Assembly: GCA_030698495.1 (NCBI GenBank)
Contig: JAUYKA010000008.1
Coordinates: forward strand, 14,895 to 78,894
Reading direction: 5' to 3'
Length of the DNA: 64,000 nucleotides
Source of the DNA: a bacterium
Lineage (GTDB): Bacteria > Patescibacteriota > Andersenbacteria > UBA10190
This document shows, one piece after another, positions 8,654 to 30,452 of the stretch. Both the position numbers and the translations under genes were made by a program. How positions within the stretch are numbered: the stretch's first letter is position 1; every line of letters starts with the position of its first letter. Under the pieces are notes generated by a model that saw nothing but the letters and a program-made list of their open reading frames with translations, did no database searches and had not been told where the DNA came from.

Positions 8654-9475
8654 ATGCCGATTATAAAAGACTACATAATTAAAACTACTCTAAAAGGGAT
8701 AGAAAACACGGTCGGGTTGTTTGGTAAAGAGTTGTCAATCGGCGGTGAAAGGGGAGAGGTAACTTTATTTATGGGATTGCCAAAAGACATGGATCCTGCT
8801 TTTCAGCGCATATATAAAGAATGCCGTCCTTACACAATGACTTCTGTAGAGCGAATGTATGCCCTATACCAGGCCACAAAATATATTATTGTTCAGCATC
8901 TTCCTGGTGATTTTGTCGAGTGCGGGGTGTGGAGGGGAGGAAGTGTGATGCTGGTGGCTAAAACTCTTAAAGAACTTGGCGTAACTGATAGGCGTATACA
9001 CCTATTTGACACATTTAAGGGGATGACTACTCCAACTGACCGTGATGCAAGGATATCTGACAATCTGCCGGCAACTTCCCTATGGAAGACGCAAGCTCGC
9101 GGTGACTATAACGAATATGCTTATGCTCCCCTTGAAGATGTGCAGCGAAACTTGTCGACTACGGGATATCCCGAGGAAAATTTTGTTATTGTTGCCGGTC
9201 CAGTGGAAGAGACTTTACCACGATTAGCCCCACCAAAAATTGCTCTTTTGCGTTTAGATACGGACTGGTATGAGTCTACTAAACATGAATTGGAACATCT
9301 TTTCCCGCTGCTTGTACAAAATGGCATTCTAATCATTGATGATTACGGGCATTTCACCGGTGCACGGGATGCAGTTGACGAATATTTTAAGGAGAAAGGC
9401 ATTAATCTTCTATTAAACAGAGTGGACTACACTGGGCGATTGGCTATTAATACCGCGCCGCAAAATAACGGCTAA
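8654..9475 (+). CDS. TylF/MycF-family SAM-dependent sugar O-methyltransferase.
   Basis: The motifs FVECGVWRGGSVM and LRLDTDWYESTK are typical of macrocin O-methyltransferase-like class I methyltransferases. Confidence 0.8.
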   Translation: MPIIKDYIIKTTLKGIENTVGLFGKELSIGGERGEVTLFMGLPKDMDPAFQRIYKECRPYTMTSVERMYALYQATKYIIVQHLPGDFVECGVWRGGSVMLVAKTLKELGVTDRRIHLFDTFKGMTTPTDRDARISDNLPATSLWKTQARGDYNEYAYAPLEDVQRNLSTTGYPEENFVIVAGPVEETLPRLAPPKIALLRLDTDWYESTKHELEHLFPLLVQNGILIIDDYGHFTGARDAVDEYFKEKGINLLLNRVDYTGRLAINTAPQNNG

Positions 9476-11151
9476 TTTGCTCTGTTTTTCGCCGCGTAAA
9501 TTTCTTGCTCGTCGAGCAAGTTGATTGGAATAACAAATTTTCCTTTAAGCAGGTTGTTTGGTGTGGAAGGTTTAGCGTTTAGATGCTTGCTCGCGCGGTA
9601 GAGAAGGTAACTTAGGCTAAAATAGCGGGTGTGCGAGGTGGCTTTAATGATGGAGAGATTGTGTTTTTTCAAGAGGACAGCCAGGGACTTTCGGGAAAAA
9701 TAGTGAAGATGAGAAGGAAAAATGCAGTACCATGAACGTCCCATCATTTTAGCCAACAAACTATCAAAGCGAGGAGTAGTTAGCACAAATAAGCCATCAG
9801 GTTTTAGTAAGCGCGCTGCTTGAGAAATTAATTTTTGGGGTTCGGGATGGTGTTCAATAACGTCTAGCATAGCTATAACATCAAAACTGGCGCTATCTAA
9901 TTTAGCGAGAGCGTTGTTATCAGTTTGAATATTTGTTAAGCCAAATTCAGCTTCGGCATAAGAGGCTGAGGCAATTGAAGGCTCGATACCGGTAACCCGC
10001 CATCCCTGCTTTTTTGCTTCATTTAAGAAGAAGCCTGGCCCAGCCCCTATATCAAGAAGGTGCCCCGGTTTTTTATTGGCTGAAATCCTGCTTAGGATTT
10101 TACGCGCTGTTTTTTGTCTGGTAACTTTTTCTGATAGATAGACTGTGTCTAAGGGTGCGTATTTATAGAGATGAGAGAGCTGTTCAAAGCTGTTGTTGAG
10201 GGGCGTGAATCCATGAGAGCATGAGGGGCAGCGGTAAATTGGCAATTGCTTATTTGTGTCTTCAATAGAGATGCGGTATTGGTGCTGTTTGAAGAAAACG
10301 CTTGGTTTAATATTTCCTTTTTGAAACAGTTTTGTTTTGTGGCTGCAAATGGGACATTTTTGAGGCGACAGGCTGCCGCTGGGCTTAAGGGTTTTAAGAG
10401 TTGACAGGCCATATTTAACTGATGATGCAAAAGGGATAGACGACGATTCGTTTGTATAGCGGCAGGGGATGGCCGCTTCGGCAAAACGGAATTTTTGGCG
10501 GGCGGCGGAGGCAATCATTTCCGAGTCAAAGACGAAGCTGTCAGAGAACTCTTCGAAAGGCAGCGACTCTAAGAGTTGTTTTGAGTAGGCCCGGTAACCG
10601 GAGTGACATTCTGACAGCGATATTCCCAAAATTTTATTTTGTAGAAAGGTGAGCAGCCTGTTGCCCCAATATCGCCACCAAACCATGCCGAATTCTCGCG
10701 GGTCTTGTTTTAAAAATCTTGAACCAATAACAAAATCGGCTTCCTGATGTAAAATTGGCTTGATCATTTGCGGCACATAGCGCGGATCATACTGAAAATC
10801 AGGGTGTATCATTACCACAATATCCGCTCCATGCTGCAAGGCTTCCTTGTAACAGGTTTTCTGGTTTCCGCCATAGCCCTTGTTCTGCCGATGTTTCACG
10901 ACCTTTAACCCGTCTATTGTTTCAGCAACCTTGACCGTATTATCACTACTGGCATCGTCTACCAAAATCACTTCATGAACATGGGTTTTTGGTATGGCTT
11001 TGTATGTTTTGGCCAGTGTTTGCTCGGCGTTGAAGGCCGGTAATACTGCGATGATGTATGGCTTTGGTTGTGCAGGCTGATCGTTGTCGAAACTCCTGAT
11101 AGCAGTTGACTGTTTCTCTGTTTTGGTTGGCTGTCTTGTTAATACGTCCAT
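9472..11151 (-). CDS. Fusion protein: an N-terminal GT2 (GT-A) glycosyltransferase, a CxxC...CxxC zinc ribbon, and a C-terminal class I SAM methyltransferase.
   Basis: The N-terminus has AVLPAFNAEQTL...VILVDDASSDNT...VIGSRF, which is DPM/GtrB-like. The middle has CPICSH...CPSCSH. The C-terminus has LLDIGAGPGFF...FDVIAMLDVIEHHPEP...LKPDGLFVLTTP. Confidence 0.75.
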   Translation of the reverse strand: MDVLTRQPTKTEKQSTAIRSFDNDQPAQPKPYIIAVLPAFNAEQTLAKTYKAIPKTHVHEVILVDDASSDNTVKVAETIDGLKVVKHRQNKGYGGNQKTCYKEALQHGADIVVMIHPDFQYDPRYVPQMIKPILHQEADFVIGSRFLKQDPREFGMVWWRYWGNRLLTFLQNKILGISLSECHSGYRAYSKQLLESLPFEEFSDSFVFDSEMIASAARQKFRFAEAAIPCRYTNESSSIPFASSVKYGLSTLKTLKPSGSLSPQKCPICSHKTKLFQKGNIKPSVFFKQHQYRISIEDTNKQLPIYRCPSCSHGFTPLNNSFEQLSHLYKYAPLDTVYLSEKVTRQKTARKILSRISANKKPGHLLDIGAGPGFFLNEAKKQGWRVTGIEPSIASASYAEAEFGLTNIQTDNNALAKLDSASFDVIAMLDVIEHHPEPQKLISQAARLLKPDGLFVLTTPRFDSLLAKMMGRSWYCIFPSHLHYFSRKSLAVLLKKHNLSIIKATSHTRYFSLSYLLYRASKHLNAKPSTPNNLLKGKFVIPINLLDEQEIYAAKNRAN

Positions 11152-11209
11152 GGATATTAGCAGTTTATGGCTTTGTGCGCTGCGGCGCGCTCTGATATGA
11201 TATTACACT

Positions 11210-13066
11210 ATGTCTAATCTTGGGCAACAAAAAAATAATATACGTATAGTGAGTATTGGTTTGCTAATAATAGGTGTGCTTGCTAGTGTTTTCCAGCTGT
11301 TATATGGCGTGGTTAGTGCTTCTATAGACCGCGATACCTATTTTTTGCTGGCGGCGGGCAGGGAAGTGGCATTAAGTGGAATTCCGCGCCTTCCTTTTTT
11401 TGTGAATAGTACGCCCGGAATCGATATTCTCTTTTGGACACACCAAGTGCCCGCCTTCTTATATGGGGCAATAGTGAAATTTTTGGATGTAAATATTTTT
11501 AGTTTTACCTGGGTTGTCATTGCCCAATTGATACTGACTATGGTTATTAGCTTCTTGTTTTTACGGGAGTTGTTGAAATGGTGTGAGCCGGGACTGGTGC
11601 GCTATGCACCGGTGTTCCTGTTGTTCCTGCTATATGATCCGATATTTAACATTCTTTTCCTGAATATAAAAATGTTTTTGCAATGGGCATATATTTGGTC
11701 TGTCTTAGCCATAATATTTTTAATATGGTTTTGGCATAACCCCCGCGGATGGCGTGGTTTAGTTTGGCTGTTTTTAAGCAGTTGTTCAGTGGCATTAGCT
11801 CCATTATCTTTTATAAGCTTGGGCATTCCGGCGGCACTTGGCATTGCCATCACAGAACTCTTGTTTGTGAGGTGGAGAACAAAAGGAATTTCACGAGAAT
11901 ATGCCATAAAAGCCTTTCTGGCCTGTATTTTAGGCTGGTTTATACCAGTGCTTTTTTTGTTAGTGTATTTGGGTGGTAAGCTGGATCCTGGCCAATGGAA
12001 AACTTTATGGGTTCTGGTTGGCTCTTATGGAGAAAACGCTTCCGTTCTAAGCATAAAACAATATATTCTCCAGCTTGGTTTTTTTGGGAGCACCATGTTT
12101 ATACCGCTACAGGGGTTCAGCTTGCTGCCAATCGGATTAATCTCAATATTTTCTAATTTTGTGCGGCGGCACAGTCTGGCTATCCAGCAGCAGTATTTGG
12201 TGTGGATGTCTTTTGTGTTGGTTGCAGCTTGGTTATTAGCGGCTTCTGTGGGGAGCACGCATTTTGCCAGCCACTTAATGATATGGATTTTGCCCATAAT
12301 GTTAGTGAATATTGCTATTATTTTAGGTTCAAAGAAGAACAGCGACACAAGAGCGATATTTTTGACGGCAGCATCGATTATTATTCTGGGGCAGGCTAGT
12401 TATCACTTAGTGCTTAATTCCTTAAACTATCTGGCAATTGCCGCGGCAGCAGGTGTGACATCGGGGATGATAATAGTTTTGTATTATCAAAAATGGAAAT
12501 TGCCGGTCTTTATAAGTTTGTTTATTTCTTTGTTGTTTTTTGTGCCGGTTGTACAAACAAGGTTAGTTTCCCTACATTCTTTTGCCCCAACGGTTTTACG
12601 GGAGGTCGGACGTGATAAATTATGGTCGTACGATAATTTTTTATTGGCTACTCGTGAAGTAACTAGCCGTTATGTTCAACCAAATGATTGGGTGTTAACT
12701 AATTTACCAGTGACTGAGCTTTTTCCCGAGGGCGTGAAGTTACAAATTCTTTATAACTATCGTGGTTTATTTAGCGGTGCTCGCCTTGAGCCGGGTGATG
12801 TGGCTATTCTTTTTGGTTCTACTGAAGCGAAGAGCATTGCTAATTATCAAAATATGAGTGTAGGTGAAGTATTTTCTTACCGTTTGTTTGAATATGAAAT
12901 ATTGAAGCGAGAAGAACTTTCTGCTGGGCATTATTTGTTAGTTGCTAAGCCAGCGGCCAGTTTAGATGCTAATAAGCAAGTTATTGAAGATGATCGAGCT
13001 GCTTCCAAAAGTGAGGTACGAAATTATTTGCAATGGCGGTTGGAGAACAATTTGCCAATTAAATAG
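11210..13066 (+). CDS. Large polytopic membrane protein of unknown function, a GT-C-like candidate with a C-terminal soluble domain.
   Basis: 618 aa with about 12 predicted TM helices, then a roughly 180-aa hydrophilic C-terminus. The first extracytoplasmic loop contains DRD. I recognise no family motif. Confidence 0.5.
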   Translation: MSNLGQQKNNIRIVSIGLLIIGVLASVFQLLYGVVSASIDRDTYFLLAAGREVALSGIPRLPFFVNSTPGIDILFWTHQVPAFLYGAIVKFLDVNIFSFTWVVIAQLILTMVISFLFLRELLKWCEPGLVRYAPVFLLFLLYDPIFNILFLNIKMFLQWAYIWSVLAIIFLIWFWHNPRGWRGLVWLFLSSCSVALAPLSFISLGIPAALGIAITELLFVRWRTKGISREYAIKAFLACILGWFIPVLFLLVYLGGKLDPGQWKTLWVLVGSYGENASVLSIKQYILQLGFFGSTMFIPLQGFSLLPIGLISIFSNFVRRHSLAIQQQYLVWMSFVLVAAWLLAASVGSTHFASHLMIWILPIMLVNIAIILGSKKNSDTRAIFLTAASIIILGQASYHLVLNSLNYLAIAAAAGVTSGMIIVLYYQKWKLPVFISLFISLLFFVPVVQTRLVSLHSFAPTVLREVGRDKLWSYDNFLLATREVTSRYVQPNDWVLTNLPVTELFPEGVKLQILYNYRGLFSGARLEPGDVAILFGSTEAKSIANYQNMSVGEVFSYRLFEYEILKREELSAGHYLLVAKPAASLDANKQVIEDDRAASKSEVRNYLQWRLENNLPIK

Positions 13067-13102: not shown

Positions 13103-14032
13103 ATGCATAACAGCGAAGCAAAACCGAATGATTGGCTGAGCCGGATAGCTTTTGATGAAACTGTTGCCAACTATACCTCTCAAAGGGGCGAAGACAGGAT
13201 ACTGCAAAAGTTGTTTGAAACAATAGGTATAAAAAATAAGTGGTGTGCGGAGTTTGGGGCGGCTGACGGCAAGCATCGAAGCAATACCTGGTATTGGATA
13301 AATAAGCAGGGGTGGTTTGGTGTGCAGATAGAAGCGGCACGGGATGTTAATTTGGGCTTGAGGATACCTTGGCACGATAGTTTTGAGGCTTTACGGCGCC
13401 GTTACAAGAATAATAAGAAGATTGTGTGCTTCAATAAGTGGGTGGGGACCAAAGGTGAGAACGCATTAGATCAGATTTTTCGAGAGACTGGCATTCCGAA
13501 AGATTTTGATTTGCTTTCAATGGATGTGGATGGCGCCGAGTATGATATTTGGCAAGCGATGGTCGAATATAAGCCGCGAGTGATGGTTATTGAATATGAT
13601 AAAACGATACCGGTAGAAATTGATTTCCATTCGGATCGCGGATCGAGTTTACGGGCGTTGGCGCGATTGGGTAGAGAAAAAGGATATGAGTTGGCGGCGG
13701 CTAATGATTTGAACGGGGTTTTTGTAAGAAAGGAATTTTTTGGGATGCTGGGCATTAGCGACAATGATCCGGCCCGGTTGTGGTCAGGGTATGAACAGTA
13801 CAGGGTTTACGCGCAGAAGAATAATAAGGGGAGCTTAGAATTTTTTGGCCCAAACAATTTAAGGTGGGTTAGCGGCAAGGACGGAACTTTGAGAGGACAG
13901 TTTGAGTCGGGACAATATATCTGGATTAAACCCGGAGAAACTTCTATTAAAAGCAAAAAAGAAAATAGTAAGATGACTTGGTATTTAACGGGGTGGCTGC
14001 GTCACTGGTTTTATTATTTGACGGGAACTTAA
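13103..14032 (+). CDS. FkbM-family SAM-dependent methyltransferase.
   Basis: The N-terminal pattern SQRGEDRIL...WCAEFGAADGKHRSNT...GWFGVQIEA matches the FkbM signature (SQxGED..., fvDvGAnDG..SNT...GW.Gl.iEp). Confidence 0.6.
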   Translation: MHNSEAKPNDWLSRIAFDETVANYTSQRGEDRILQKLFETIGIKNKWCAEFGAADGKHRSNTWYWINKQGWFGVQIEAARDVNLGLRIPWHDSFEALRRRYKNNKKIVCFNKWVGTKGENALDQIFRETGIPKDFDLLSMDVDGAEYDIWQAMVEYKPRVMVIEYDKTIPVEIDFHSDRGSSLRALARLGREKGYELAAANDLNGVFVRKEFFGMLGISDNDPARLWSGYEQYRVYAQKNNKGSLEFFGPNNLRWVSGKDGTLRGQFESGQYIWIKPGETSIKSKKENSKMTWYLTGWLRHWFYYLTGT

Positions 14033-14953
14033 ATGAGGAAAATTGTAGTCTTGCAATCGCCGGCAAAGTTATACGAAGTTGTACCGGTGTTTTATAAAGA
14101 GCTAAACAAAGCTAATTACTTTGATGAATTTTATCTAGCGACAGACAAAAAGGAGCCCCATGGACTTGGTGGTAATGTAAAAGTAATAAATTTAGAGAAA
14201 GATTTAGGATGGGAGGCGAATTTAAAGATTTTACTAGAAAATATTCCGGAAGATATTTTTGTGATGATGTGCGATGATCATGTGACTGTTGGCGAGCAAA
14301 AAGTGGAGCTAGATAAATATTTTGAGGTGATGAAGCAAGCGCCGGAGTTGGGACGTTTGCAGCTTTCTCCTCCCACCAGGAATTATTATAAGTTTTTAAA
14401 GGTTCGCGGGTTGCCGGTTGTGATACCGGACGATAAGAAAGGGTGGTACCCCTACGACAAAAGATATCGCTGGCATCTTAATTTTCAACCATCTATCTGG
14501 CGCAAGGATTTTTTAAGTGAAGTGATCGAAGGCGGCGGCAATAGAAGCCAAATGGAAATTCGAGCAGCGGAGCGGGCAAGAAGAAGCAAGAGATATGTTT
14601 CCGGTTATATTGGCAGTTATGCTTTGCGGTATGAAAATTTTCTGGCCAGTTGCCAGGTTGATCATATTGATTTTACCCATCATCGCAAAAAGAAGACGTC
14701 GGTATATCGGGAGGAGTTTATTCGTTATGCTAAAAGAAACAATTACCAGCTTGATTCAAATAAAATGGCCTATATCAGACAAGCCGGTTTACAGGCTTTA
14801 ATGCCATCAAAATATGCCGTTGACCATTTTGGTGATCGCGAAGCTTATAAAAAATATGCAATCAAAAGAAGTTCGTTGGCTTATCGGTGGTCCAGGCTAA
14901 AGAGGCGTTTAAGGGCGAGAATAGCTCCTTTTATTTCAGTCTCCGGCCGGTAA
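14033..14953 (+). CDS. Hypothetical protein. It could be a nucleotide-sugar transferase-like enzyme but is unassigned.
   Basis: A 306-aa soluble protein. It is translationally adjacent (TAA-ATG) to the FkbM-like gene. It has an acidic FVMMCDDHV segment, and I recognise no family. Confidence 0.4.
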   Translation: MRKIVVLQSPAKLYEVVPVFYKELNKANYFDEFYLATDKKEPHGLGGNVKVINLEKDLGWEANLKILLENIPEDIFVMMCDDHVTVGEQKVELDKYFEVMKQAPELGRLQLSPPTRNYYKFLKVRGLPVVIPDDKKGWYPYDKRYRWHLNFQPSIWRKDFLSEVIEGGGNRSQMEIRAAERARRSKRYVSGYIGSYALRYENFLASCQVDHIDFTHHRKKKTSVYREEFIRYAKRNNYQLDSNKMAYIRQAGLQALMPSKYAVDHFGDREAYKKYAIKRSSLAYRWSRLKRRLRARIAPFISVSGR

Positions 14954-15655: not shown

Positions 15656-15861
15656 GGACCAAGAAAGTCATGACAATAAAATGCCCGTTTGGCAGCTGAC
15701 TGACGGTACGGTGGTTATACAAAGCGAAGAGGATCCAGCGTTGGCTATCAATCGAGGGCGTATAAAATGGACGACAGACAAGGGCGTTGCTAGAAGAAAG
15801 ACTTTTTTCGAGACGCTAAAGCATTCAGCACGAAAAATACTGGAGCATATTTGATTTAATG

Positions 15862-23562: not shown

Positions 23563-24636
23563 TTGCATGTTATGACACACACTTATGTGATAGGTGAAAT
23601 AGGGCAGAACCATAATGGTTCTGTGGGTCTGGCAAAACGCATCATTGATATAGCGTCTATGCCGGTTATTGACAATAATGGCCGTGAGTACAAGGCAATG
23701 GATGCGATCAAGCTGCAAAAAAGGGACCTACGTGAAGAGATGACTGCTTCAGAGAGGCTAAAAGCGTATGATAGTACAAATTCTTTTGGTAGAACATACG
23801 GAGAGCACAGAGCGTATTTAGAATTAAGCAACGAGCAGCATGCGGAGCTTTATTACTACGCTAAAAATAGAGGGCTGGAGGTGGTGGAAACCATTTGCAG
23901 TGTGGGAGCGCTGGAGCTGCTTGATTTTTTTAAACCAGATAAATTAAAAGTTGCTTCAAGGGATCTGACTAATTTGCCATTGGTTGAGGCGATGGCAAGA
24001 ACTAAAATACCCCTTATTCTTTCGACGGGGATGTCGGGAATTGAAGATTTGGCAGAAGCTTTAAAAATTGTCAGTGCGTATCAATCCAGAATTACTATTT
24101 TGCATTGTCTTTCCCAGTATCCGGCGGATTATAAAAATATAAATTTGCATACCATTACATATCTTCGCCGGGAATATCCTCAACATATTATCGGTTACTC
24201 TGACCATAGTGAAGGCATTATGATTCCAGTTGCGGCGGTGTCTTTGGGCGCTCAAGTTATTGAAAAGCATTTAACATTGAATCGTGCAATGAAAGGATCT
24301 GATCATCGGGGGGCCTTGGCCCCTGATGGTGTTTTTCGGATGATGCGCGATATACGACATTTGGAGTTGGCTCTAGGAGAGCCAATAATGGAAGCTCATC
24401 CTGCAACTACCATCGCAAGGGATAAACTGGAAAGGTCAGTTGCTGCCAGAAGAGACCTGATGATTGGAGAGATTATAACAGAGGAAGATATCCATTTGCT
24501 TAGTCCGGGGATGGGGTTGAAATGGAGAGATAGAGGAAAGATTCTAGGACGCAAAGTCAAGCAGGTTGTCAAAAAAGATGAGCTGATACTATTGGAAGAT
24601 TGCACGCAGGAGACCGTGCTGCAAAAAGTAGCCTAA
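23563..24636 (+). CDS. NeuB-family nonulosonic acid synthase (N-acetylneuraminate / legionaminate / Kdn-type).
   Basis: VIGEIGQNHNGS, PLILSTGMSG, ILHCLSQYP, IGYSDHSEG and VIEKHLTLNRAMKGSDH align with NeuB catalytic motifs. A C-terminal SAF domain follows. Confidence 0.85.
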   Translation: MHVMTHTYVIGEIGQNHNGSVGLAKRIIDIASMPVIDNNGREYKAMDAIKLQKRDLREEMTASERLKAYDSTNSFGRTYGEHRAYLELSNEQHAELYYYAKNRGLEVVETICSVGALELLDFFKPDKLKVASRDLTNLPLVEAMARTKIPLILSTGMSGIEDLAEALKIVSAYQSRITILHCLSQYPADYKNINLHTITYLRREYPQHIIGYSDHSEGIMIPVAAVSLGAQVIEKHLTLNRAMKGSDHRGALAPDGVFRMMRDIRHLELALGEPIMEAHPATTIARDKLERSVAARRDLMIGEIITEEDIHLLSPGMGLKWRDRGKILGRKVKQVVKKDELILLEDCTQETVLQKVA

Positions 24637-24643: not shown

Positions 24644-25207
24644 CTATATCGTTTTGGCGATCAGTAGTAATTCTAGTATTTCTCTGACGGCGCCGTCCCC
24701 GCCTGAAGATTTAGTAATGTACCCTTTTGTTTTTTGGACAAAATCAATGACTGGCGGGTAAGAATCTTTTACGGCAATGGGCAATCCAACTGCCCGGAGA
24801 CAGTCAAGGTCATTTAAATCATTGCCAACATATATTGTATTTTTCAAAGAGATTTTTCTTGATTTAGTCTGTTTTTGTAACTCAATTAATTTATTGGTGA
24901 CGCCGTGATATGCTTTAATTTTTAATTTGTTGGCACGAGAGACGACGATGTTGTTTGCTTCTGCGGATATGATTATAAATTTAAGACCCAGGGCGACTAA
25001 TTCTTTATAACCAAAAAAGTCACTGCGATCACATTGAACATACTCTAACCCCTCTCGATCTATTAATACTTTATTATTGGTGATTACTCCATCGAAATCT
25101 AAAACAACAAGCTTACAATTGCTAAGTATTTCTTTAGTTTTCTTGGGTAATCTATCAAATCTATTTTTAGCCTCTTTATTTTTGATGATGATATTGACGT
25201 AGTTCAT
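24644..25207 (-). CDS. HAD-superfamily KdsC/YrbI-family phosphatase (Kdo-8-P or nonulosonate-9-P phosphatase type).
   Basis: LVVLDFDGVITNN (DxD motif I), YVGNDLNDL and GDGAVREI are the classic KdsC family motifs. Confidence 0.85.
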   Translation of the reverse strand: MNYVNIIIKNKEAKNRFDRLPKKTKEILSNCKLVVLDFDGVITNNKVLIDREGLEYVQCDRSDFFGYKELVALGLKFIIISAEANNIVVSRANKLKIKAYHGVTNKLIELQKQTKSRKISLKNTIYVGNDLNDLDCLRAVGLPIAVKDSYPPVIDFVQKTKGYITKSSGGDGAVREILELLLIAKTI

Positions 25208-25219
25208 ATTAATGTCTCT

Positions 25220-26131
25220 CTATTTCTTACGGCAAACTACACGCTTAACACTACTGCCGTTCATTGTAATTTTGCCTTCTATAGCACGAAAATTATTTTT
25301 GATGAACTTGAGTACCTCCAAGCGCTGGTTGGTTGATCCGATAGTATCAAGGCCATCGCCGTCAGAGCTAATATAGTCGAAGATAAAGTAACCACCTGTT
25401 TGCAGCTGCCGGTGCAGATGCCGGACTATTGACAGCGGGCGGGGGAGATGCTCAAGAACAGTCAAACAAGTAATAACATCATAAGTATTTTTTAGAGGAG
25501 CGGTGTCAATGGGATCAAGGGTTTTTATCTCCACATTTTTATAGTTTTGCAGTTTCCAGCGAGCGAAGTGAAGCAGTATGTTTGGTATATCTGTTCCGGT
25601 TAATTTTAAATTAAGTTCGGGATAATAGCGGGCTAGGTTTTGTGTGATCGGCGCAAGTCCGCAGCCATACTCGCAAACAGAATCTCTTTTTTTGATATAT
25701 TTGCGAATACTCCAGACAGAGATCGGGTGGAGAGCCAGTTTGTATTGATAGGCAAAAATAAGGTAGGTTGTGGCGGGGTCCTGCCATGTCGATAAAAAGG
25801 ATTCCCTGTTTTGTTCTTGGTTAGCGGCTATTCTAACGAACTGAAATTTTGATCTATAGAGTCCATAAAGGTAGAAAAAATCAGGAAGAGACAATCGGCA
25901 TAATTGAAGTTCGTATTTCCAATAGTTTTGAAATTCATTAAACCACCCCAGCACCAGATTGGCATATACCATTCTTTTCCATATCCCGCTGATTTGTAAC
26001 GCTGCCAAACTCCAAAATTGTATTTTTCTGGTTAGCATTAGACCCGGCTTTTGGGTGCTTTGGGATCTTGGCGGAGAGGATAATAACCTATTAATATCCA
26101 ATTCTACTAGGTCGTAGTGGTTTTTAAGCAT
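25220..26131 (-). CDS. Class I SAM-dependent methyltransferase.
   Basis: It has VCEYGCGLAP, YDVITCLTVLEHLP and TGGYFIFD. Confidence 0.6.
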   Translation of the reverse strand: MLKNHYDLVELDINRLLSSPPRSQSTQKPGLMLTRKIQFWSLAALQISGIWKRMVYANLVLGWFNEFQNYWKYELQLCRLSLPDFFYLYGLYRSKFQFVRIAANQEQNRESFLSTWQDPATTYLIFAYQYKLALHPISVWSIRKYIKKRDSVCEYGCGLAPITQNLARYYPELNLKLTGTDIPNILLHFARWKLQNYKNVEIKTLDPIDTAPLKNTYDVITCLTVLEHLPRPLSIVRHLHRQLQTGGYFIFDYISSDGDGLDTIGSTNQRLEVLKFIKNNFRAIEGKITMNGSSVKRVVCRKK

Positions 26132-26170
26132 ATTTTGAGTCTACTGCCAAAATATGTACGATGAAAGGAT

Positions 26171-26845
26171 ATGGCAGGATACACATCAAAATTAGGCTAT
26201 TGGTGGTCAGCTACTTATCGTCGTAAGGCTCTGGATAGGTTGCAGTCTCAATATGCCGGCTATTATAGGGGGGTGGTGATTGATATCGGCGGACGTGATC
26301 GCGGGCGTTTTAATAAACCCAAGAAAAAGGTTGATAGGTGGGTTTTCGCCGATATAGAAGTGGGCCATAAACCGGATATTGTTTTAGATGTGATGGATAT
26401 GCAGGGTGTAGAAAGCGGGAGCGTGGATGTGGTTAATGCTATCGAGTTGTTTGAACACGTTGCAGATCCCAGGAAGGGGTTAGGTGAATGTTGGCGAGTA
26501 TTAAAGCCCAGGGGTGTTTTGGCGGTTTCTACTCCTTTTTTGTATCCCATTCATGGCGATCCGCACGACTATCAGCGCTGGACAGAAAAGCAGTGGCGAG
26601 TGTCTCTAGAATTGGCAGGTTTCAAAGTTGTACATTGTAATATTATGGGCAGATACTTTTTTGTATTGGCTGACATACTTAAAGATGGTTTGAAACAGCT
26701 ACCGGGTCTTTTGAAGTGGTTGGGCATTCCTTTAATGTTGCTGTTGGATTTGTTGACAGTTCTAGATAGGTCTGAACTTGTTCTTAAATCTAAGAAACTT
26801 AGTCAATACCATGGAGGATATTTTATAGTTGCTAAAAAAACATAA
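26171..26845 (+). CDS. Class I SAM-dependent methyltransferase (Methyltransf_11-like).
   Basis: It has VVIDIGGRD, VDVVNAIELFEHV and LKPRGVLAVST. Confidence 0.7.
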   Translation: MAGYTSKLGYWWSATYRRKALDRLQSQYAGYYRGVVIDIGGRDRGRFNKPKKKVDRWVFADIEVGHKPDIVLDVMDMQGVESGSVDVVNAIELFEHVADPRKGLGECWRVLKPRGVLAVSTPFLYPIHGDPHDYQRWTEKQWRVSLELAGFKVVHCNIMGRYFFVLADILKDGLKQLPGLLKWLGIPLMLLLDLLTVLDRSELVLKSKKLSQYHGGYFIVAKKT

Positions 26846-27732
26846 TGGCAGGACATGAAATTATAATCCAGGGATCTTCGTATCAGATTGATCTTTTGCA
26901 GAAATATAACGAGGATAGCAGTGTGCCAAGGTTGGTTATTATTAGTTACCTGCCGAATAAAGAGGCGCAGAGAATATTGCAGACAGCCTTGCGAGCGATT
27001 GAGGTTTTCACGCCCGGGAAGAAAGAAGTGTGGGTAATAGATAACGCGTCTCCTGATGAGGCGGTTCGGTGGCTGCAGAAGCAAGAGAATATAAATATTG
27101 TTTTGAATAAGACTGTCCCCGTATTACCTTGGGGTTTTTTGCGCCGGTTACCTTATTTTAAAAAAAGAATGAGTTCGGGCAGTTTTGCCAATGCTGTGGG
27201 TCTAGAGATAGCTAGTAAACTTATTGACCCCAACTCGAAATATTTTATGTCCCTGCACATGGACGTTATGCCGACTAGGATAGGGTGGCTGAGTTTTATG
27301 TTGTCTAAGTTGAATGACCGAGTGAAGGCAGCCGGAGTGCGTCTTGATAAGGCCCGTTCCCCTGAAGGGGTTTTGCATATTCTGGGATGTCTTTTTGATT
27401 GGCAGTTGTTCCAACAACTCAACGTATCTTTTTTGCCGGCATTACCGGAATTTGATGTAGGGGATAAAATAACAACGGAGTTTAGAGCTGCTGGCTATGG
27501 CGTTTATGCTTGTCCTAATACAATATGGAATCCAAGGCTGGCAGATGATTTGTCCGCGTCATCTCCTTTTAAAAATTTTAATGTTGACCGATCTTTTGAC
27601 GATGAGGGAGATGTTATTTTTTTACATCTGGGAAGGGGAATAAAAAAATCATCTTCTAATCGCAGCAGCTCTTATAAGGTTGATGCAGAAAAGTGGATTG
27701 AGTTTGGTGAGCAGCTTTTAAAAGATGGCTAG
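26845..27732 (+). CDS. Putative GT2-like (GT-A) glycosyltransferase.
   Basis: It has VWVIDNASPDEAV and a downstream HMDVMP acidic motif. The assignment is weak. Confidence 0.45.
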   Translation: MAGHEIIIQGSSYQIDLLQKYNEDSSVPRLVIISYLPNKEAQRILQTALRAIEVFTPGKKEVWVIDNASPDEAVRWLQKQENINIVLNKTVPVLPWGFLRRLPYFKKRMSSGSFANAVGLEIASKLIDPNSKYFMSLHMDVMPTRIGWLSFMLSKLNDRVKAAGVRLDKARSPEGVLHILGCLFDWQLFQQLNVSFLPALPEFDVGDKITTEFRAAGYGVYACPNTIWNPRLADDLSASSPFKNFNVDRSFDDEGDVIFLHLGRGIKKSSSNRSSSYKVDAEKWIEFGEQLLKDG

Positions 27733-27734
27733 GA

Positions 27735-28718
27735 TCAAAGAAAAATTTTACTTAGCTGGTACAGGCGATATTTTAGCAATAATTTTTTTTGGACGAGCTT
27801 GGGTGGCGTCAGATGTTTTTGTTTGGTTGTTTGATTAGCAAATGACAAATAATCTTGAGAGACTTTTTGTATGGAATGGTCTGCTTTTTTATAGATATTT
27901 TTATCTAAGTTTTTGGATACTCTATTAATAATTTCCAAAATATCTTTCTGTCCCTTGAATAGTTCTCCTTGCGATCCGATTAGTTCTGGGTGTCCTCCGC
28001 TATTCAATGCAATGGCCGGAAGACCGCAAGAAAGTGCCTCTATCAGTGAATTTGAGCAGGGATCATTTTTTGAAGCAGTAATATACATATCGTGTTGTCG
28101 CAGAATATTAGCTAGTTCGTTAGAGTGAAGAGGTTTAATAATCTTAATATTTTTGAAGTCTACTGTTGTGTTGCCAACAAAAGTCATGTCGTATTTGCTG
28201 AAATCTAGATTATTGTCTAAATATTGATATATTTGAAATCCTTTTCTGGGATTGCCCGACCAGGAAGTGGTAATGATTTTTATTTTATGGTTGCTATGAT
28301 GATTGTTGCTTGGGAAGAATATTCTAGAATCAGCGGCATTGCTAATGATTGTGCTGTTTTGGTGGGTGATATTAAAAATCTTCTCATTTTCTTTCTTGGA
28401 CCACTTTGACTGAAAAACTATTCCGTCTGCATATAATGTAATGAATTCTTTTATCAAATAATCGATATATTTATCCTTACCTCTTACTAAAGATATGGGG
28501 CCGTCTATTCGCGCAATGACTGGTTTTTGGTTGTTGGCGATCTTATTGATTAGTTCTGGTATTGCCGTTGGGTTAACGTTGGCTATCAGGCAATCTGCTG
28601 CTTGGTGGGTGTCAGAATATGCATTTTGGTTTTCTAACTCTTTTTTTAGTGCTTTGAGAAATTGATTTCCCCCACCATAAGGACCGTCAATCAAAGAGTT
28701 TAATATGTGGAACTTCAT
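27735..28718 (-). CDS. GT4-family (GT-B) glycosyltransferase.
   Basis: The C-terminus has ITASKNDPCSNSLIEALSCGLPAIALNSGGHPELI, the E-x7-E-like GT4 motif. Confidence 0.75.
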   Translation of the reverse strand: MKFHILNSLIDGPYGGGNQFLKALKKELENQNAYSDTHQAADCLIANVNPTAIPELINKIANNQKPVIARIDGPISLVRGKDKYIDYLIKEFITLYADGIVFQSKWSKKENEKIFNITHQNSTIISNAADSRIFFPSNNHHSNHKIKIITTSWSGNPRKGFQIYQYLDNNLDFSKYDMTFVGNTTVDFKNIKIIKPLHSNELANILRQHDMYITASKNDPCSNSLIEALSCGLPAIALNSGGHPELIGSQGELFKGQKDILEIINRVSKNLDKNIYKKADHSIQKVSQDYLSFANQTTKQKHLTPPKLVQKKLLLKYRLYQLSKIFL

Positions 28719-29818
28719 GTGTGTTGTTTGAGGAGGGGTTTATATAGTTCGTTATAGTATCTTTGGGCAATAAGAGGCCAGTCAAATTTTTTAGCTTGAG
28801 TATAAGCTTGTTCCGTTAGCTGCTTATTTAGTTCTTTGCTGCTTATTAATGTGGATATTTTTTGTGACAGCGTCTTTACGTCCTCACTATTTGCCAATAG
28901 TGCTGTCTTTTTATCATTGGCTATATCTGGTACCATGCCCACTTCTGTACTGATTACCGGTATTTTACTGGCCCATGCTTCCAATAATGCCAGTGGGCCA
29001 CCCTCTTCTCGGGATGTTATCAGATAAGCGTCTAGCGCGGAGTAATAGGGAGCTACTTCGTTAATGTCTGGGAGATATCCAAGATGAGTAAAGGGGACGC
29101 CGGCTTTTTTAAGGTTGGTTTTTACATAGCCCCTCGCTGGACCAATTAGCAGTACGTGTAGGGGGTGGCTTTTGTTAACCTCTTTCACTGTTTTTATAAA
29201 GATGTCCGGACCCTTTTCTAGTTTTGGTTGCAGGCCGTCTTGCCAGCCGATACCGTCTTTTTGGAACGATCCAATAACGAAAGAATTTTTAGGAATGTTT
29301 AATTTTTGTCTAATGGAACTTTTTTTGCCACTGTCGGCTGGTTTAAAAGTTTGAAGGTCAACTCCTAAAGGAATTACCTTGACTTTATTTTCAGGAATGC
29401 CTTTGTCGATTATTTTCTTTTTGGTATTTTCGCAAGAAGTATGGATATAGAAAACTTGGTTGGAAATTCGTACTAAGAAGAAAGGGTTACTTTTTTGGGG
29501 CAGTAAGTGAAAGATGGAGAGGACATATTTATTATTGAGTGTTAATTTCTTGGGCTGTTTACCCCGGAAGATGGTGTGCAGTGAGCCAAAATGAACCAAG
29601 CTGTTTCGAAGAGCAAAGTTTGTAGATGTTATGGTTGCTTTTATATCAGTTGAAGTATTTATGTTTTTGATGACTTGAGATCCAACATACCTTATTGCCC
29701 ATGATTTTGCTTCGACAACGTAGGACAGATCTCTCGGACTAATAATGTTATTAGCGAGACTCTTGGCAATGAAAGTTTTACTTTTCCAGTTTCTGAACAA
29801 CTGCATATAGTTCCCCAA
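28715..29818 (-). CDS. GT4-family glycosyltransferase.
   Basis: ITSREEGGPLALLEAWASKIPVISTEVGMVPDI. Confidence 0.8.
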   Translation of the reverse strand: MGNYMQLFRNWKSKTFIAKSLANNIISPRDLSYVVEAKSWAIRYVGSQVIKNINTSTDIKATITSTNFALRNSLVHFGSLHTIFRGKQPKKLTLNNKYVLSIFHLLPQKSNPFFLVRISNQVFYIHTSCENTKKKIIDKGIPENKVKVIPLGVDLQTFKPADSGKKSSIRQKLNIPKNSFVIGSFQKDGIGWQDGLQPKLEKGPDIFIKTVKEVNKSHPLHVLLIGPARGYVKTNLKKAGVPFTHLGYLPDINEVAPYYSALDAYLITSREEGGPLALLEAWASKIPVISTEVGMVPDIANDKKTALLANSEDVKTLSQKISTLISSKELNKQLTEQAYTQAKKFDWPLIAQRYYNELYKPLLKQHT

Positions 29819-30452
29819 AATTTATATGATAATGTAGTATTTTTAGGTTGGCTTCTTTAATCTCTTTAAAGAAGGAATGTAGATCGTATTCAATGTAGTG
29901 GGTGTCGTCTAGACGATAGGCAAATCCTTCATTCTTTTTATAGACACTAATCCAATCTCTGGTAATCATTGGTACTCTTATAAGTATGCGGGGTGCTATG
30001 CCGGATAGTTTTTTTAGAAAATCGACTCGGTTTTTTATATGCTCTAAGACGTTGGATAAAATTATTACATCGAATTTCTGGTTAAAGCGGTAGGTGGTAG
30101 CGTCTCCTACTATATAGCTTAAGTTAGTTGGAGTTTTATTTTCATCGGCTAATTGTATGTTTTTATTTGAGATATCTATGCCGACAACTTCTTTAGCTTT
30201 TTGACTGACGCTTCTCGCGACTTCTCCTTTCCCGCAACCAATATCTAGTACTGTGTTGTTTGCATCTATATTATCCAAGAAGAATTTGTGATAATTGATA
30301 ATTGTGTGTTTGGGGTGGGTACCGCTACTTGAGGCAAAAAATGAGATGAGCTGATAGGAGGCGTTGTGTATTGTGACTAGCAACCTAGTAATAGGGCGAT
30401 TTAGGCGCGATTTCCTAAGAATTATTAGCAGATAGTGGATTATTTGGCGCAT
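29778..30452 (-). CDS. Class I SAM-dependent methyltransferase.
   Basis: It has VLDIGCGKGEV, VGIDIS and FDVIILSNVLEHI. Confidence 0.75.
   Translation of the reverse strand: MRQIIHYLLIILRKSRLNRPITRLLVTIHNASYQLISFFASSSGTHPKHTIINYHKFFLDNIDANNTVLDIGCGKGEVARSVSQKAKEVVGIDISNKNIQLADENKTPTNLSYIVGDATTYRFNQKFDVIILSNVLEHIKNRVDFLKKLSGIAPRILIRVPMITRDWISVYKKNEGFAYRLDDTHYIEYDLHSFFKEIKEANLKILHYHINFGELYAVVQKLEK

Follow-up and report, generated by a model that had tools for sequence, protein, structure and literature searches.

A methyltransferase-dense core within a multi-module glycan supercluster of an Andersenbacteria genome

Organization of the locus

Positions 8654–30452 of the window, by which we mean the whole 64 000-nucleotide stretch that was analysed, form the methyltransferase-dense core of a multi-module glycan supercluster of more than 75 kb. 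The glycan locus runs more than 10 kb past the window, where further glycosyltransferases and a Polysacc_synt flippase are found. The host belongs to the CPR/Patescibacteria, and the named relatives of its MurJ (55–58% identity) are all Candidatus Andersenbacteria. It is uncultured, ultra-small and known from metagenomes only.

Nine of the 21 genes of the core encode methyltransferases, whereas a scan of the 36 other ORFs of the window detected none, an excess with p = 3e-5 in a Fisher test and, against an assumed background of 2%, p = 1e-10 in a binomial test. The density that had been claimed in a sequence-only reading of this DNA is thus far above the window background, and all nine coordinates given there coincide with true ORF boundaries. 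For the minus-strand genes 9472, 15862, 25220 and 29778 these coordinates are the low-coordinate, C-terminal ends.

8654–9475, plus strand: methyltransferase 1, class I, TylF family (macrocin O-methyltransferase type); Pfam TylF 151.9 bits (cut-off 23), Methyltransf_24 54.8
9472–11151, minus strand: methyltransferase 2, fused to a GT2 glycosyltransferase; Pfam GT2 85.4 bits, Methyltransf_23 107.3 bits
13103–14032, plus strand: methyltransferase 3, divergent FkbM type, module A; Pfam FkbM 24.9 (cut-off 22.7)
14954–15655, plus strand: methyltransferase 4, cation-dependent O-methyltransferase (CCoAOMT/COMT) fold, module A; family motifs, AlphaFold2 and Foldseek
15862–16530, minus strand: methyltransferase 5, small, Methyltransf_23/11 type; Pfam Methyltransf_23 44.5 bits, Methyltransf_11 30.2 bits
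22897–23562, plus strand: methyltransferase 6, small class I enzyme of a rare family; Methyltransf_23 25.6 (cut-off 27), family motifs
25220–26131, minus strand: methyltransferase 7, Methyltransf_23/12, 303 residues, the first 140 or so being an N-terminal extension; Pfam 57.6/51.9 bits
26171–26845, plus strand: methyltransferase 8, small, Methyltransf_11 type; Pfam Methyltransf_11 40.4, Methyltransf_23 28.7
29778–30452, minus strand: methyltransferase 9, canonical Methyltransf_23/11/25, between GT4 genes; Pfam 64.7/63/61 bits

For comparison we used the Saccharibacteria loci L012 and L006 (contig CAYJWL010000006.1) and L005/L014.

Assignment of the nine methyltransferases

A glycine-rich motif I, followed 20–28 residues further on by the β2 acidic residue, is present in every one of the nine proteins. 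The class I SAM features claimed for all of them are thereby borne out, with SAM binding itself predicted from sequence. The canonical GxGxG occurs in only four, the other five having variant glycine loops. Classification by HMM succeeds in part: seven proteins pass the Pfam gathering cut-offs, including 8654 and, marginally, 13103 for the TylF and FkbM families previously proposed for them, while 22897 falls just under and 14954 has no match.

Methyltransferase 1 carries the motifs VECGVWRGG and LDTDWYES/IIDDYGH. In the 9472 fusion a Dpm1/AglJ/PpgS-like GT2 domain (residues 36–196) is followed by a four-cysteine linker (CPICS...CPSCS) and a Methyltransf_23 domain (residues 345–503, about 9643–10119, motif LLDIGAGPG), which is indeed C-terminal, at the low-coordinate end of the gene. 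Its best NCBIfam matches are the polyprenyl-phosphate-sugar synthases AglJ and PpgS. FkbM is matched by 30 of 46 homologues of 13103, and the best Foldseek matches of its AlphaFold2 model (pLDDT 84.9) are class I methyltransferases, the top one being Mycobacterium hassiacum MeT1 (6g80), although at a TM score of 0.36–0.5 and 14–15% identity. Neither 14954 (likely start 14978) nor any of its at least 849 homologues contains a Pfam domain, making this an unannotated family. It conserves the motifs ETGTYxG...E...GDS...FWLDAH...IDD, and its AlphaFold2 model (pLDDT 90.9) matches class I methyltransferases only, with cation-dependent O-methyltransferases as the best hits (Foldseek E 4e-9, probability 1.0). 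Protein 22897 (likely start 22921) has the canonical motif VLDLGCGFG. Methyltransf_23 is matched by 19 of the 21 members of its family, which share LDLGCGFGMYWP, FVGIDLF, DDVRN and FDxIL.

Pairwise identity among the nine does not exceed 30%, the value for 15862 and 26171, and they are therefore not recent duplicates. Such divergence is what enzymes with differing substrates or regiospecificities would show.

We consider it highly improbable that the locus is a chimera of metagenome assembly or that several of these proteins are inactive relics. The genome is indeed metagenome-assembled, the GC content across 8–40 kb (0.37–0.43) lies under that of the flanks (0.45–0.49), and the glycine loops of the five variant proteins could be read as degenerate. 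An independent Logan assembly of SRR13727534, however, gives the same sequence in a 51.6 kb contig spanning the region, the right part is recovered in a second NCBI assembly and a second run, and gene order is kept in Saccharibacteria contigs. All nine ORFs are full-length, closely packed and free of frameshifts, and the family-conserved motifs are still present.

Module A and the left flank

Module A consists of a GDP-fucose-synthase-like enzyme, the FkbM-like methyltransferase, a 306-residue protein and the COMT-fold methyltransferase. To these this genome adds the TylF methyltransferase and the polyprenyl-phosphate-sugar-synthase–methyltransferase fusion, beside GT-C-like membrane proteins.

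1152–2273 (plus strand), 2274–4712 and 4690–7539 (both minus strand): YfhO-like/GT-C-like polytopic membrane proteins at the left end, mutually similar, 6–12 hydrophobic segments
7652–8632, plus strand: GDP-L-fucose-synthase-like SDR (3,5-epimerase/4-reductase type), opening module A; Pfam Epimerase 186.6 bits
11210–13066, plus strand: membrane protein with 12 hydrophobic (TM) segments, candidate GT-C/polymerase-like, adjoining the GT2–methyltransferase fusion
14033–14953, plus strand: conserved 306-residue protein between two module A methyltransferases, with a syntenic homologue in L012

The SDR scores 312 bits for NCBIfam GDPFucSynFcl, under the cut-off of 500. Sub-threshold YfhO matches are found in Pfam for 1152–2273 and 4690–7539 and not for 2274–4712. 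Pfam and NCBIfam scans gave no match for 11210–13066 or 14033–14953; the latter is possibly a GT-A-like enzyme. The most likely products of module A are O-methylated hexose or 6-deoxyhexose units. A share of these would be supplied in the form of lipid-linked monosaccharides to glycosylation reactions outside the membrane.

A nonulosonic acid cassette at the centre

The methyltransferases had been described as interleaved with glycosyltransferases. This holds only for the firm glycosyltransferase domains at 9472 (in the fusion), 27735 and 28715, but the middle of the region is filled by a nonulosonic acid biosynthesis cassette. The earlier reading makes no mention of this Kdn/sialic-type cassette.

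16629–17834, 17821–18834 and 18800–19825, plus strand: conserved trio preceding the nonulosonic acid genes, syntenic in L005 and L006
19829–21097, plus strand: DUF4910/DUF2172/HTH_47 (M28-peptidase-like) protein; Pfam DUF4910 242.4 bits
21099–22904, plus strand: divergent NeuB-like synthase (residues 1–325) fused to a CTP_transf_3 cytidylyltransferase (residues 338–551); Pfam NeuB 109.2, CTP_transf_3 63.2
23563–24636, plus strand: NeuB-type nonulosonic acid synthase with SAF domain; Pfam NeuB 224.9, SAF 35.2
24644–25207, minus strand: C0-type HAD phosphatase, KdsC/Kdn-9-P phosphatase family; NCBIfam KdsC 100.9 bits, KDN-9-P phosphatase 87.7 bits

Module B thus comprises NeuB, a KdsC/Kdn-9-P-type phosphatase, a CMP-transferase and three methyltransferases (22897, 25220 and 26171). 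The synthase 23563–24636 scores 263 bits for NCBIfam NeuB_NnaB (cut-off 399.65) and the fused protein 21099–22904 about 120 bits for PseI/NeuB, also under the cut-off; PDB matches of the latter are pseudaminic acid synthase, SpsE and a cytidylyltransferase. Both NCBIfam scores of the phosphatase are likewise below cut-off, and its best PDB matches are YrbI/KdsC and the Bacteroides thetaiotaomicron-type phosphatase (3e81/3e8m). In the preceding trio, 17821–18834 has only a sub-threshold NTP_transf_2 (nucleotidyltransferase-fold) match and 18800–19825 no family match in Pfam or NCBIfam. No aminotransferase, N-acetyltransferase, PseB/LegB-type or UDP-GlcNAc 2-epimerase families were found in Pfam and NCBIfam scans of the window ORFs.

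Among 20 relatives of 22897, 12–13 are fusions of about 383 residues in which the methyltransferase is the C-terminal domain and the N-terminal domain matches CMP-Neu5Ac synthetases (E 2e-29). This fusion to a NeuA-like CMP-sugar synthetase suggests that the nonulosonic acid is methylated. Between the fused synthetase domain and the cytidylyltransferase encoded upstream of 22897 there is only a distant relationship (29% over 76 residues), and as a consequence the 'Rosetta-stone' link is indirect in this genome. For at least three of the methyltransferases, no other context is as informative as this Kdn/sialic-type cassette. A Kdn/sialic-type nonulosonic acid would be made by a phosphorylated route (NeuB-type synthase, KdsC/Kdn-9-P-type phosphatase and then CMP activation). 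The acid or its CMP derivative would receive methyl groups from 22897, 25220 and, in this genome, 26171 as well.

Assembly and export

26845–27732, plus strand: ORF with only a weak GT2-like match
27735–28718 and 28715–29818, minus strand: two GT4 glycosyltransferases
30457, 31442, 32224 and 33306, minus strand: GT4, GT2, GT4 and GT4, just beyond 30452
34413 and 35255, plus strand: Dpm1-like GT2 and DUF2304
35638, plus strand: 4,6-dehydratase-like SDR
36621–38480, minus strand: MsbA/HepA/PglK-like ABC exporter; HepA 368, MsbA 350, PglK 205 bits

Several transfer and export routes are represented: the ABC exporter, three Dpm1/PpgS-like GT2 enzymes, at least five large polytopic GT-C-like proteins and the flippase past the window. 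Neither a priming phosphoglycosyltransferase (WecA/WbaP type) nor an obvious ligase or oligosaccharyltransferase was recognized in the window. The GT4 and GT2 enzymes together with methyltransferase 29778 (module C) would carry out the cytoplasmic, lipid-carrier-bound assembly of an oligo- or polysaccharide, and the MsbA/PglK-like exporter would move this lipid-carried glycan outwards.

O-antigen and S-layer glycan systems are known to include terminator and modifier modules. Several of the methyltransferases might, rather than modifying sugar hydroxyls along the chain, place chain-terminating caps (WbdD/WsaE type, ABC-transporter-dependent) or act on non-sugar substituents (phosphate, amino, carboxyl, glycerate) or on lipid or protein acceptors. 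An ABC exporter is present, the fused 9472 and the GT4-flanked 29778 resemble such modules, and the acceptor atom cannot be read from an assignment to Methyltransf_11/23/25. We nevertheless regard this explanation as unlikely: the exporter is a fused MsbA/PglK/HepA type and differs from a Wzm/Wzt pair with a cap-binding domain, Pfam finds no kinase domain beside any methyltransferase, nine terminators far exceed the need of any such system, and the TylF, FkbM and COMT-fold families are usually O-methyltransferases.

Conservation in Saccharibacteria

Contig CAYJWL010000006.1 is collinear with 7652–33303 of the window at 31–69% identity and has 6–7 methyltransferase genes in about 38 kb, which makes methyltransferase richness a lineage trait; L005/L014 has three in 20 kb. 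In module A the syntenic L012 proteins are 69% (7652–8632), 57% (13103), 62% (14033–14953) and 55% (14954) identical. Homologues of the trio 16629–19825 are syntenic in L005 and L006 (29–44%), while tblastn found no counterpart of 19829–21097 in either. Syntenic identities in L005 and L006 are 54% and 49% for 22897 and 51% and 47% for 25220, whose position beside the phosphatase is conserved. The NeuB 23563–24636 is 68% identical in L006, and the GT4 enzymes 27735 and 28715 are 46–48% identical to syntenic L006 genes. The block 30457–38480 is syntenic in L005 and L006. The position of 29778 is taken in L006 by another Methyltransf_11 methyltransferase (24% identity), and 8654, 15862 and 26171 are particular to the window in this comparison. 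In L005, a CTP–methyltransferase fusion and a 25220-like methyltransferase occur although both NeuB and HAD are missing from the surrounding 10 kb, so that the linkage of the 22897 and 25220 types to that synthase is not strict. The modules vary independently among these relatives.

Proposed products

We slightly favour a supercluster in which modules A, B and C yield at least one surface glycoconjugate that is partly hydrophobic and bears several methyl groups, each of the nine divergent methyltransferases presumably having its own substrate or position. All substrates, the order of steps, the number of end products and the choice of O- over N- or C-methylation are inferred. All pathway enzymes lie below the NCBIfam equivalog cut-offs, and the sugar identities (Kdn or another nonulosonic acid, fucose or another 6-deoxyhexose) are hence guesses. 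The expectation of a highly methylated glycan is reasonable with nine divergent methyltransferase-fold proteins amid glycan genes, and stays a sequence-based prediction; the surface sugars of the host are probably unusually heavily methylated.

The notion of one glycan locus finds no support, given the size of the supercluster and its several modules and export or transfer routes, over whose products the methyl groups may be spread. Nine methyltransferases close-packed with glycan genes inside 22 kb would fit a single glycan with about nine distinct methyl groups or, by extension, a polymethylated cytoplasmic lipid-binding polymer resembling the mycobacterial MMP/MGLP. This is quite improbable, since the modules vary independently and the exporter, Dpm1-like synthases, GT-C-like proteins and flippases point to surface products, probably more than one.

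Comparison with known systems

The parallels drawn earlier with named methylated glycans fare less well. MeT1 of the MMP system is the best structural neighbour of 13103, but the likeness is at fold level only, and the MMP cluster arrangement meT1–mmpH–pmeT3–manT (PMC9883506) is not evident in the gene order of the region. The predicted export machinery also argues against a cytoplasmic MMP/MGLP-type polysaccharide. A flagellin or S-layer parallel finds no matching families (flagellin/Maf, S-layer/Wzm–Wzt/O-OTase) among the ORFs scanned. In the O-glycan cluster of Tannerella forsythia, three methyltransferases account for two methyl groups (PMC6120980); the number of methyltransferases therefore does not equal that of methyl groups, which again speaks against nine methyl groups on a single glycan.

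Nine methyltransferases of the class I fold

An open reading frame is present at each of the nine positions between 8654 and 30452 at which the sequence-only reading had placed a methyltransferase (MT). The genes at 9472, 15862, 25220 and 29778 are on the minus strand and the coordinate used for them is the low, C-terminal end; in 9472, which had been described as the C-terminus of a fusion, the MT domain indeed forms that end of the protein.

Methyltransferase genes of the locus and their Pfam matches (minus-strand genes are marked)
8654–9475: TylF, 151.9 bits
9472–11151, minus strand: GT2, 85.4 bits, and Methyltransf_23, 107.3 bits; MT domain at residues 345–503
13103–14032: FkbM, 24.9 bits against a cut-off of 22.7 (marginal)
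14954–15655: no match
15862–16530, minus strand: Methyltransf_23, 44.5 bits
22897–23562: Methyltransf_23, 25.6 bits against a cut-off of 27 (sub-threshold)
25220–26131, minus strand: MT match of 57.6 bits
26171–26845: Methyltransf_11, 40.4 bits
29778–30452, minus strand: MT match of 64.7 bits

HMM classification places seven of the nine above the Pfam gathering cut-off; 22897 and 14954 are supported by other evidence. A glycine-rich motif I loop, followed 20–28 residues downstream by an acidic residue at the end of β2 (ribose binding), is found in all nine, as had been claimed. A canonical GxGxG loop is present in 9472, 22897 and 29778 and a nearly canonical one in 25220; the other five have variants. 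We consider the predicted membership of all nine proteins in the class I (Rossmann-fold) SAM-dependent methyltransferase superfamily to be confirmed.

The clustering of these genes is likewise confirmed by their density, with nine MT domains in 21 genes versus none in the 36 other ORFs of the window (Fisher p = 3e-5). Recent paralogous expansion of a single MT is ruled out by an all-against-all BLASTP comparison, in which no pair exceeds 30% identity; this mutual divergence fits enzymes that differ in substrate or in the position they methylate. The MTs had also been described as interleaved with glycosyltransferases (GTs). Glycan genes do surround them, but the middle of the range is occupied by a sugar-acid biosynthesis cassette rather than by GTs.

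Two divergent methyltransferase families

The match of 8654 to PF05711 (TylF/macrocin O-methyltransferase; 151.9 bits) is of the full-length type, covering profile positions 68–259 of 264, and the protein has no NCBIfam equivalog match. The names TylF and FkbM recall natural-product pathways, a context that is ruled out here as no PKS or NRPS is present.

Structural models were made for the two weakest cases, 13103 and 14954. The PF05050 (FkbM) match of 13103 spans only profile positions 101–171 and its TIGR01444 score of 22.4 falls below the cut-off of 37.7. Among its 4,818 homologues, 30 of the 46 members that were aligned match PF05050, weakly. Sequence searches of the PDB with 13103, and with the gene at 16629, gave no matches. 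The AlphaFold model of 13103 (pLDDT 84.9) has exclusively class I MTs as its top PDB neighbours, the first being MeT1 from Mycobacterium hassiacum. The protein is best described as a member of a divergent FkbM-related family.

The family of 14954 has at least 849 homologues across bacteria and archaea. None of the 120 homologues listed contains a Pfam domain and, where the source names these, the name is 'hypothetical protein'. The family alignment contains the invariant motifs ETGTYxG, GDS, FWLDAH and IDD together with Glu86, and a profile built from it gives weak, motif-I-level matches in the PDB to class I MTs exclusively. The AlphaFold model (pLDDT 90.9, pTM 0.86) gives 505 Foldseek matches to PDB entries at E ≤ 1e-3, the top ones all being MTs. 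The top 30 are of the CCoAOMT/COMT/TrmR type, with E-values from 4e-9 to 1e-6, TM scores of 0.5–0.58 and a probability of 1.0 for the best. Family motifs, profile matches and predicted structure together rule out the possibility, raised by the lack of a Pfam match, that 14954 is not an MT. Sequence models do not make it a member of the cation-dependent O-methyltransferase family (CCoAOMT/COMT, PF01596-like). Its invariant residues Asp132, His134 and Asp172–Asp173, candidate metal ligands, align with LDTD and IIDD of the TylF-type protein 8654 at an hhalign probability of 55%. On the strength of the model, the family can now be annotated as a predicted COMT-fold MT linked to glycan genes.

A small ORF of 80 amino acids (15612–15854, plus strand) directly follows 14954. 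An ORF in the same position in a related Saccharibacteria locus (L012, 4882–5094) is 31% identical to it over 59 residues (pairwise E 4e-8).

A nonulosonic acid cassette with embedded methyltransferases

Three enzymes define the middle of the range.

Core enzymes of the cassette
21099–22904: fusion of a divergent NeuB-like domain (PF03102, 109.2 bits) and a CTP_transf_3 cytidylyltransferase (PF02348, 63.2 bits)
23563–24636: NeuB-family synthase with a SAF domain (PF03102, 224.9 bits)
24644–25207: C0 HAD phosphatase of the KdsC/Kdn-9-phosphate phosphatase family (KdsC 100.9 bits, KDN-9-P phosphatase 87.7 bits, both below cut-off)

The cassette also contains the three MTs 22897, 25220 and 26171. 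The PDB neighbours of the phosphatase include YrbI/KdsC and the entries 3e81 and 3e8m, which we take to be of the Bacteroides thetaiotaomicron Kdn-9-phosphate phosphatase type (BT1713). A synthase accompanied by a dedicated phosphatase implies a phosphorylated intermediate. Pfam and NCBIfam scans of the window ORFs found no PseB/C/H, LegB/C/H, NeuC, aminotransferase or N-acetyltransferase, a result that covers the window and is compatible with such genes elsewhere in the genome. As amino-sugar enzymes are lacking from the window, our best guess is that a phosphorylated route leads to an acid of the Kdn-like (deaminated) or sialic type. Both NeuB domains score under the NCBIfam NeuB/PseI equivalog cut-offs; since all three enzymes thus fall below such cut-offs, the identity of the acid is a prediction. 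In literature searches, no paper came up that connects Saccharibacteria to nonulosonic or sialic acids, nor anything relevant on Saccharibacteria or CPR bacteria with nonulosonic acids or methylated glycans.

Upstream of these genes lies a plus-strand trio (16629–19825) that is conserved in both Saccharibacteria loci compared below. It has no family assignment: the second gene has a sub-threshold NTP_transf_2 match alone and the third has no match. These genes may supply transferases or phosphotransferases that the route to the acid still lacks. Also inside the cassette is an M28-aminopeptidase-like gene (19829–21097, plus strand; DUF4910/DUF2172/HTH_47), for which tblastn found no counterpart in L005 or L006, one segment from each of the two Saccharibacteria contigs.

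A methyltransferase family fused to CMP-sugar synthetase

The 22897 family is rare, with 21 proteins found, 19 of which match Methyltransf_23 at E ≤ 0.01. In 22897 itself the loop reads VLDLGCGFG and the family conserves LDLGCGFGMYWP, FVGIDLF, DDVRN and FDxIL. The short length and sub-threshold score could have indicated a truncated or decayed MT; this is ruled out by the entire family being equally compact with conserved motifs.

Of the 20 relatives, 12–13 are proteins of about 383 amino acids with the MT as their C-terminal half; their N-terminal half matches CMP-Neu5Ac synthetases (E 2e-29). This fusion argues that the family works on a nonulosonic acid or its CMP derivative. The window protein stands alone, directly downstream of the NeuB-like/cytidylyltransferase fusion 21099 with an 8-nt overlap. 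The cytidylyltransferase domain of 21099 is only 29% identical over 76 residues to that of the fused relatives. This does not support 21099 and 22897 being a split version of that fusion, and the link of 22897 to the CMP-sugar step is thus positional and by analogy rather than by orthology. A 385-residue ORF upstream of the fusion gene in L006 is also unrelated to 21099. Through this rare fusion family, which joins a CMP-nonulosonate synthetase to an MT, O-methylated sialic-acid-like sugars would be formed; we know of no characterised bacterial enzyme for such sugars.

Related loci in Saccharibacteria

A scan of GTDB species genomes places the closest relatives of 22897 in two Candidatus Saccharibacteria MAGs. 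One contig, CAYJWL010000006.1 (loci L012 and L006), is collinear with the window. Its left part encodes homologues of the Fcl-like protein (69% identity), the FkbM-like MT (57%), a 306-residue protein (62%) and the COMT-fold MT (55%). After other genes follow homologues of 16629, 17821 and 18800, the cytidylyltransferase–MT fusion, NeuB (68%), the HAD phosphatase (47%) and a 25220-like MT (47%), and then the series GT4, GT4, GT4, GT2, GT4. A Methyltransf_11 gene lies between GT4 genes at the exact position of 29778 but is only 24% identical to it, and 29778 therefore looks like a non-orthologous replacement.

MT genes number six or seven over about 38 kb of this contig and three over 20 kb of the second (L005/L014), which has no NeuB or HAD nearby. 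MT richness is thus conserved in this CPR supercluster. No counterpart of 8654, 9472, 15862 or 26171 was detectable in the two Saccharibacteria loci compared.

Genomic context

Profile scans show glycan genes throughout the whole 64 kb window, very tightly packed: at least 12 GT4, several GT2 and two GT9-like transferases, a glycerophosphotransferase-like gene, a polysaccharide deacetylase and MurJ, the named relatives of which (55–58% identity) are all from Candidatus Andersenbacteria. These relatives and the synteny with Saccharibacteria are the basis of the taxonomic placement. Three polyprenyl-phosphate sugar synthases resembling Dpm1/AglJ/PpgS are encoded, at 34413 (with DUF2304), at 57236 and as the N-terminal domain of 9472. 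YfhO-like and other polytopic membrane proteins with 7–12 hydrophobic segments occur at 2274, 4690, 11210, 39647 and 43090, and a fused ABC exporter scores best against HepA, MsbA and PglK. Beyond the right end, glycan genes extend over at least another 10 kb (L002, 1–10000), with GT4, GT2 and GT1 genes, a 774-residue protein without assignment and a Polysacc_synt flippase. The window contains no tRNA genes and no Rfam matches, which rules out RNA elements or a tRNA-linked island.

A second NCBI assembly (GCA_034376345.1) and a second run (SRR26726065) contain proteins identical to ones from the window's right end, so this uncultured organism has been recovered more than once. GC skew, (G−C)/(G+C), is strongly positive (0.09–0.31) in every 2 kb window regardless of gene strand, and the whole stretch appears to belong to a single replichore, in a genome whose strand asymmetry is very strong. 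GC content is 0.37–0.43 in the MT- and GT-rich core (8000–40000) versus 0.45–0.49 in both flanks, a drop typical of glycan loci that vary or are exchanged.

Several individual genes deserve mention. Mutually related polytopic membrane proteins of 224–949 residues (311–7539 and 43090–45249; 22–27% mutual identity), of which 1152–2273 and 4690–7539 have faint YfhO similarity only, look like a putative CPR-specific GT-C-like expansion. The two GT9 (LPS heptosyltransferase-like) genes, 51536–52753 and 58006–59052 (both minus strand), one of which reaches 127.3 with the heptosyltransferase II model (cut-off 134.6), are an odd pair in a CPR bacterium, which is expected to be without LPS. The mechanically called ORFs 33306–34823 (minus strand) and 34413–35258 (plus strand) overlap antisense by 411 nt, as do those in the Saccharibacteria locus (L005, 18180–18581). 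This is most likely an ORF-extension artefact, since internal methionines at residues 98 and 41 give abutting divergent genes. In L014 the gene caller omitted the GT2 counterpart of 34413 altogether. A small Trp-repressor-family (YerC/YecD-like) protein at 47585–48043 is the only apparent non-glycan gene in the window. The 886 bp that follow it, up to 48929, hold overlapping short ORFs of 94–159 residues, none taken forward as a gene, and form the only sizeable apparent gap.

A possible pathway and its products

These genes can be arranged in a three-module mechanism, towards which we lean slightly. The Fcl-like protein, 13103, the 306-residue protein and 14954 would make O-methylated 6-deoxyhexose or hexose units. 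The polyprenyl-phosphate-sugar-synthase–MT fusion 9472, beside 12-TM and YfhO-like proteins, may provide a methylated lipid-linked monosaccharide for glycosylation outside the membrane. In the second module a methylated Kdn-like acid would be made and activated. In the third, the GT4/GT2 genes and 29778 would assemble a lipid-linked glycan, to be flipped by the ABC exporter. The proposal that the locus makes a glycan with many methyl groups is plausible, given nine MT-fold proteins among glycan genes, but that there is one single product is not established; modular variation between relatives and multiple export routes lead us to favour several products.

The locus is of a known kind, a glycan biosynthesis locus with tailoring MTs. 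What is notable is the density of MTs, the conservation in CPR bacteria, the family in which CMP-nonulosonate synthetase and MT are fused, and the large Pfam-less MT family. A collinear glycan supercluster that is unusually rich in MTs is conserved in two CPR lineages and would account for much of what is presumably a small genome; genomes of the Andersenbacteria and Saccharibacteria lineages are typically small. Cultivated CPR/Patescibacteria are obligate episymbionts (PMC11623550), so their surface molecules presumably matter for host-cell contact. If the chemistry is confirmed, the locus would represent a heavily methylated type of surface glycan outside actinobacteria and giant viruses, and would offer handles for CPR cell surfaces (antibodies, lectins and metabolic labels).

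A wider reading would join several proposals, and we think it rather unlikely that the whole of it holds. Andersenbacteria and Saccharibacteria would conserve an MT-rich glycan supercluster, the product of which would be a heavily O-methylated surface glycan containing a Kdn-like acid. The nonulosonic acid would be methylated, as the free acid or the CMP-sugar, by the uncharacterised MT family fused to CMP-sugar synthetase, and the Pfam-less COMT-fold family with its at least 849 members would be a widespread sugar O-methyltransferase. The resulting methyl-capped, partly hydrophobic coat could, as a lineage-specific trait, govern host-cell attachment or phage evasion in these episymbionts.

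Comparison with known systems

The sequence-only reading had named methylated flagellin or S-layer glycans and the mycobacterial methylated polysaccharides as closest parallels. The first two are ruled out by the window scans. Among 56 ORFs there is no flagellin, Maf/PseE or flagellar family. S-layer (slg) clusters and ABC-transporter-dependent O-antigen clusters with methyl caps are defined by a Wzm/Wzt ABC-2 transporter, a WsaE/WbdD-type terminator and a WaaL/WsaB-type ligase; the scanned ORFs contain no ABC2_membrane, Wzy_C or kinase–MT architecture. The only ABC transporter is of the fused MsbA/HepA/PglK type.

The parallel with the methylmannose and methylglucose polysaccharides (MMP/MGLP) is not established. 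The MMP cluster is meT1-mmpH-pmeT3-manT (PMC9883506). Shared features are dedicated sugar O-methyltransferases clustered with a GT4-type transferase and the idea of a polymer made hydrophobic by methylation; MeT1 is also the top structural neighbour of 13103, a likeness at fold level only. However, the polymers MMP and MGLP are cytoplasmic and actinobacterial, and each cluster has two MTs along with a hydrolase for recycling, whereas the window has exporters, lipid-linked sugar synthases, GT-C-like proteins and a nonulosonic acid cassette. The exporters predicted here speak against a product of this type that stays in the cytoplasm, and neither the four-gene arrangement nor that of GpgS/GpgP/Rv3030–3037c is evident in the gene order of the window.

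Regiospecific O-methylation of 6-deoxyhexoses (rhamnose, fucose, 6-deoxytalose or allose) is known from the mycobacterial glycopeptidolipid locus (rmt2, rmt3, rmt4 and fmt) and from macrolide deoxysugar tailoring (TylF, TylE and MycF). The window resembles these in its multiple MTs and in the TylF-family gene 8654 adjoining a GDP-fucose-synthase-like gene. Those loci, from actinobacteria, belong to lipid, NRPS or PKS pathways and have about three or four MTs, whereas the window has no PKS or NRPS and a CPR envelope-glycan context.

The Kdn pathway of Bacteroides thetaiotaomicron comprises the Kdn-9-phosphate synthase BT1714, the phosphatase BT1713 and a CMP-Kdn synthetase. As in that pathway, a NeuB-family synthase, a C0 HAD phosphatase and a CMP-transferase occur together and amino-sugar enzymes are absent, which implies a phosphorylated, deaminated or sialic-type route. 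The window differs in that the cytidylyltransferase is fused to an additional, divergent NeuB-like domain, that three MTs are embedded in the cassette, and that all three enzymes score below the equivalog cut-offs.

Multiple methylated sugars are also a feature of the capsid glycans of giant viruses (chloroviruses; PMC9614988). Their small genome encodes GT–MT multidomain enzymes, and their glycans carry several O-methylated rhamnose or xylose units. A GT–MT fusion is likewise seen in 9472, a likeness of architecture. The chlorovirus machinery is viral and works in the eukaryotic cytoplasm without lipid carriers or exporters.

The closest functional analogue is the general protein O-glycosylation cluster of Tannerella forsythia, a 27 kb locus with GtfS/M/I/L and other GTs, MtfJ/O/Y and a terminal Pse/Leg nonulosonic acid (PMC6120980). 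No more than two methyl groups are added there by the three MTs (PMC6120980), a warning that the number of MT genes need not equal the number of methyl groups. The window differs in having nine MTs in 22 kb, in the absence of the amino-sugar enzymes by which the Pse/Leg-type acid is made, and in showing no identified protein target or oligosaccharyltransferase, whereas T. forsythia is a diderm of the Bacteroidota in which the S-layer is the defined target. Both are cytoplasmic stepwise glycan loci that combine GTs with several class I MTs and a CMP-activated nonulosonic acid. The T. forsythia product is a methylated surface glycan and, by analogy, the same kind of product is predicted for the window.
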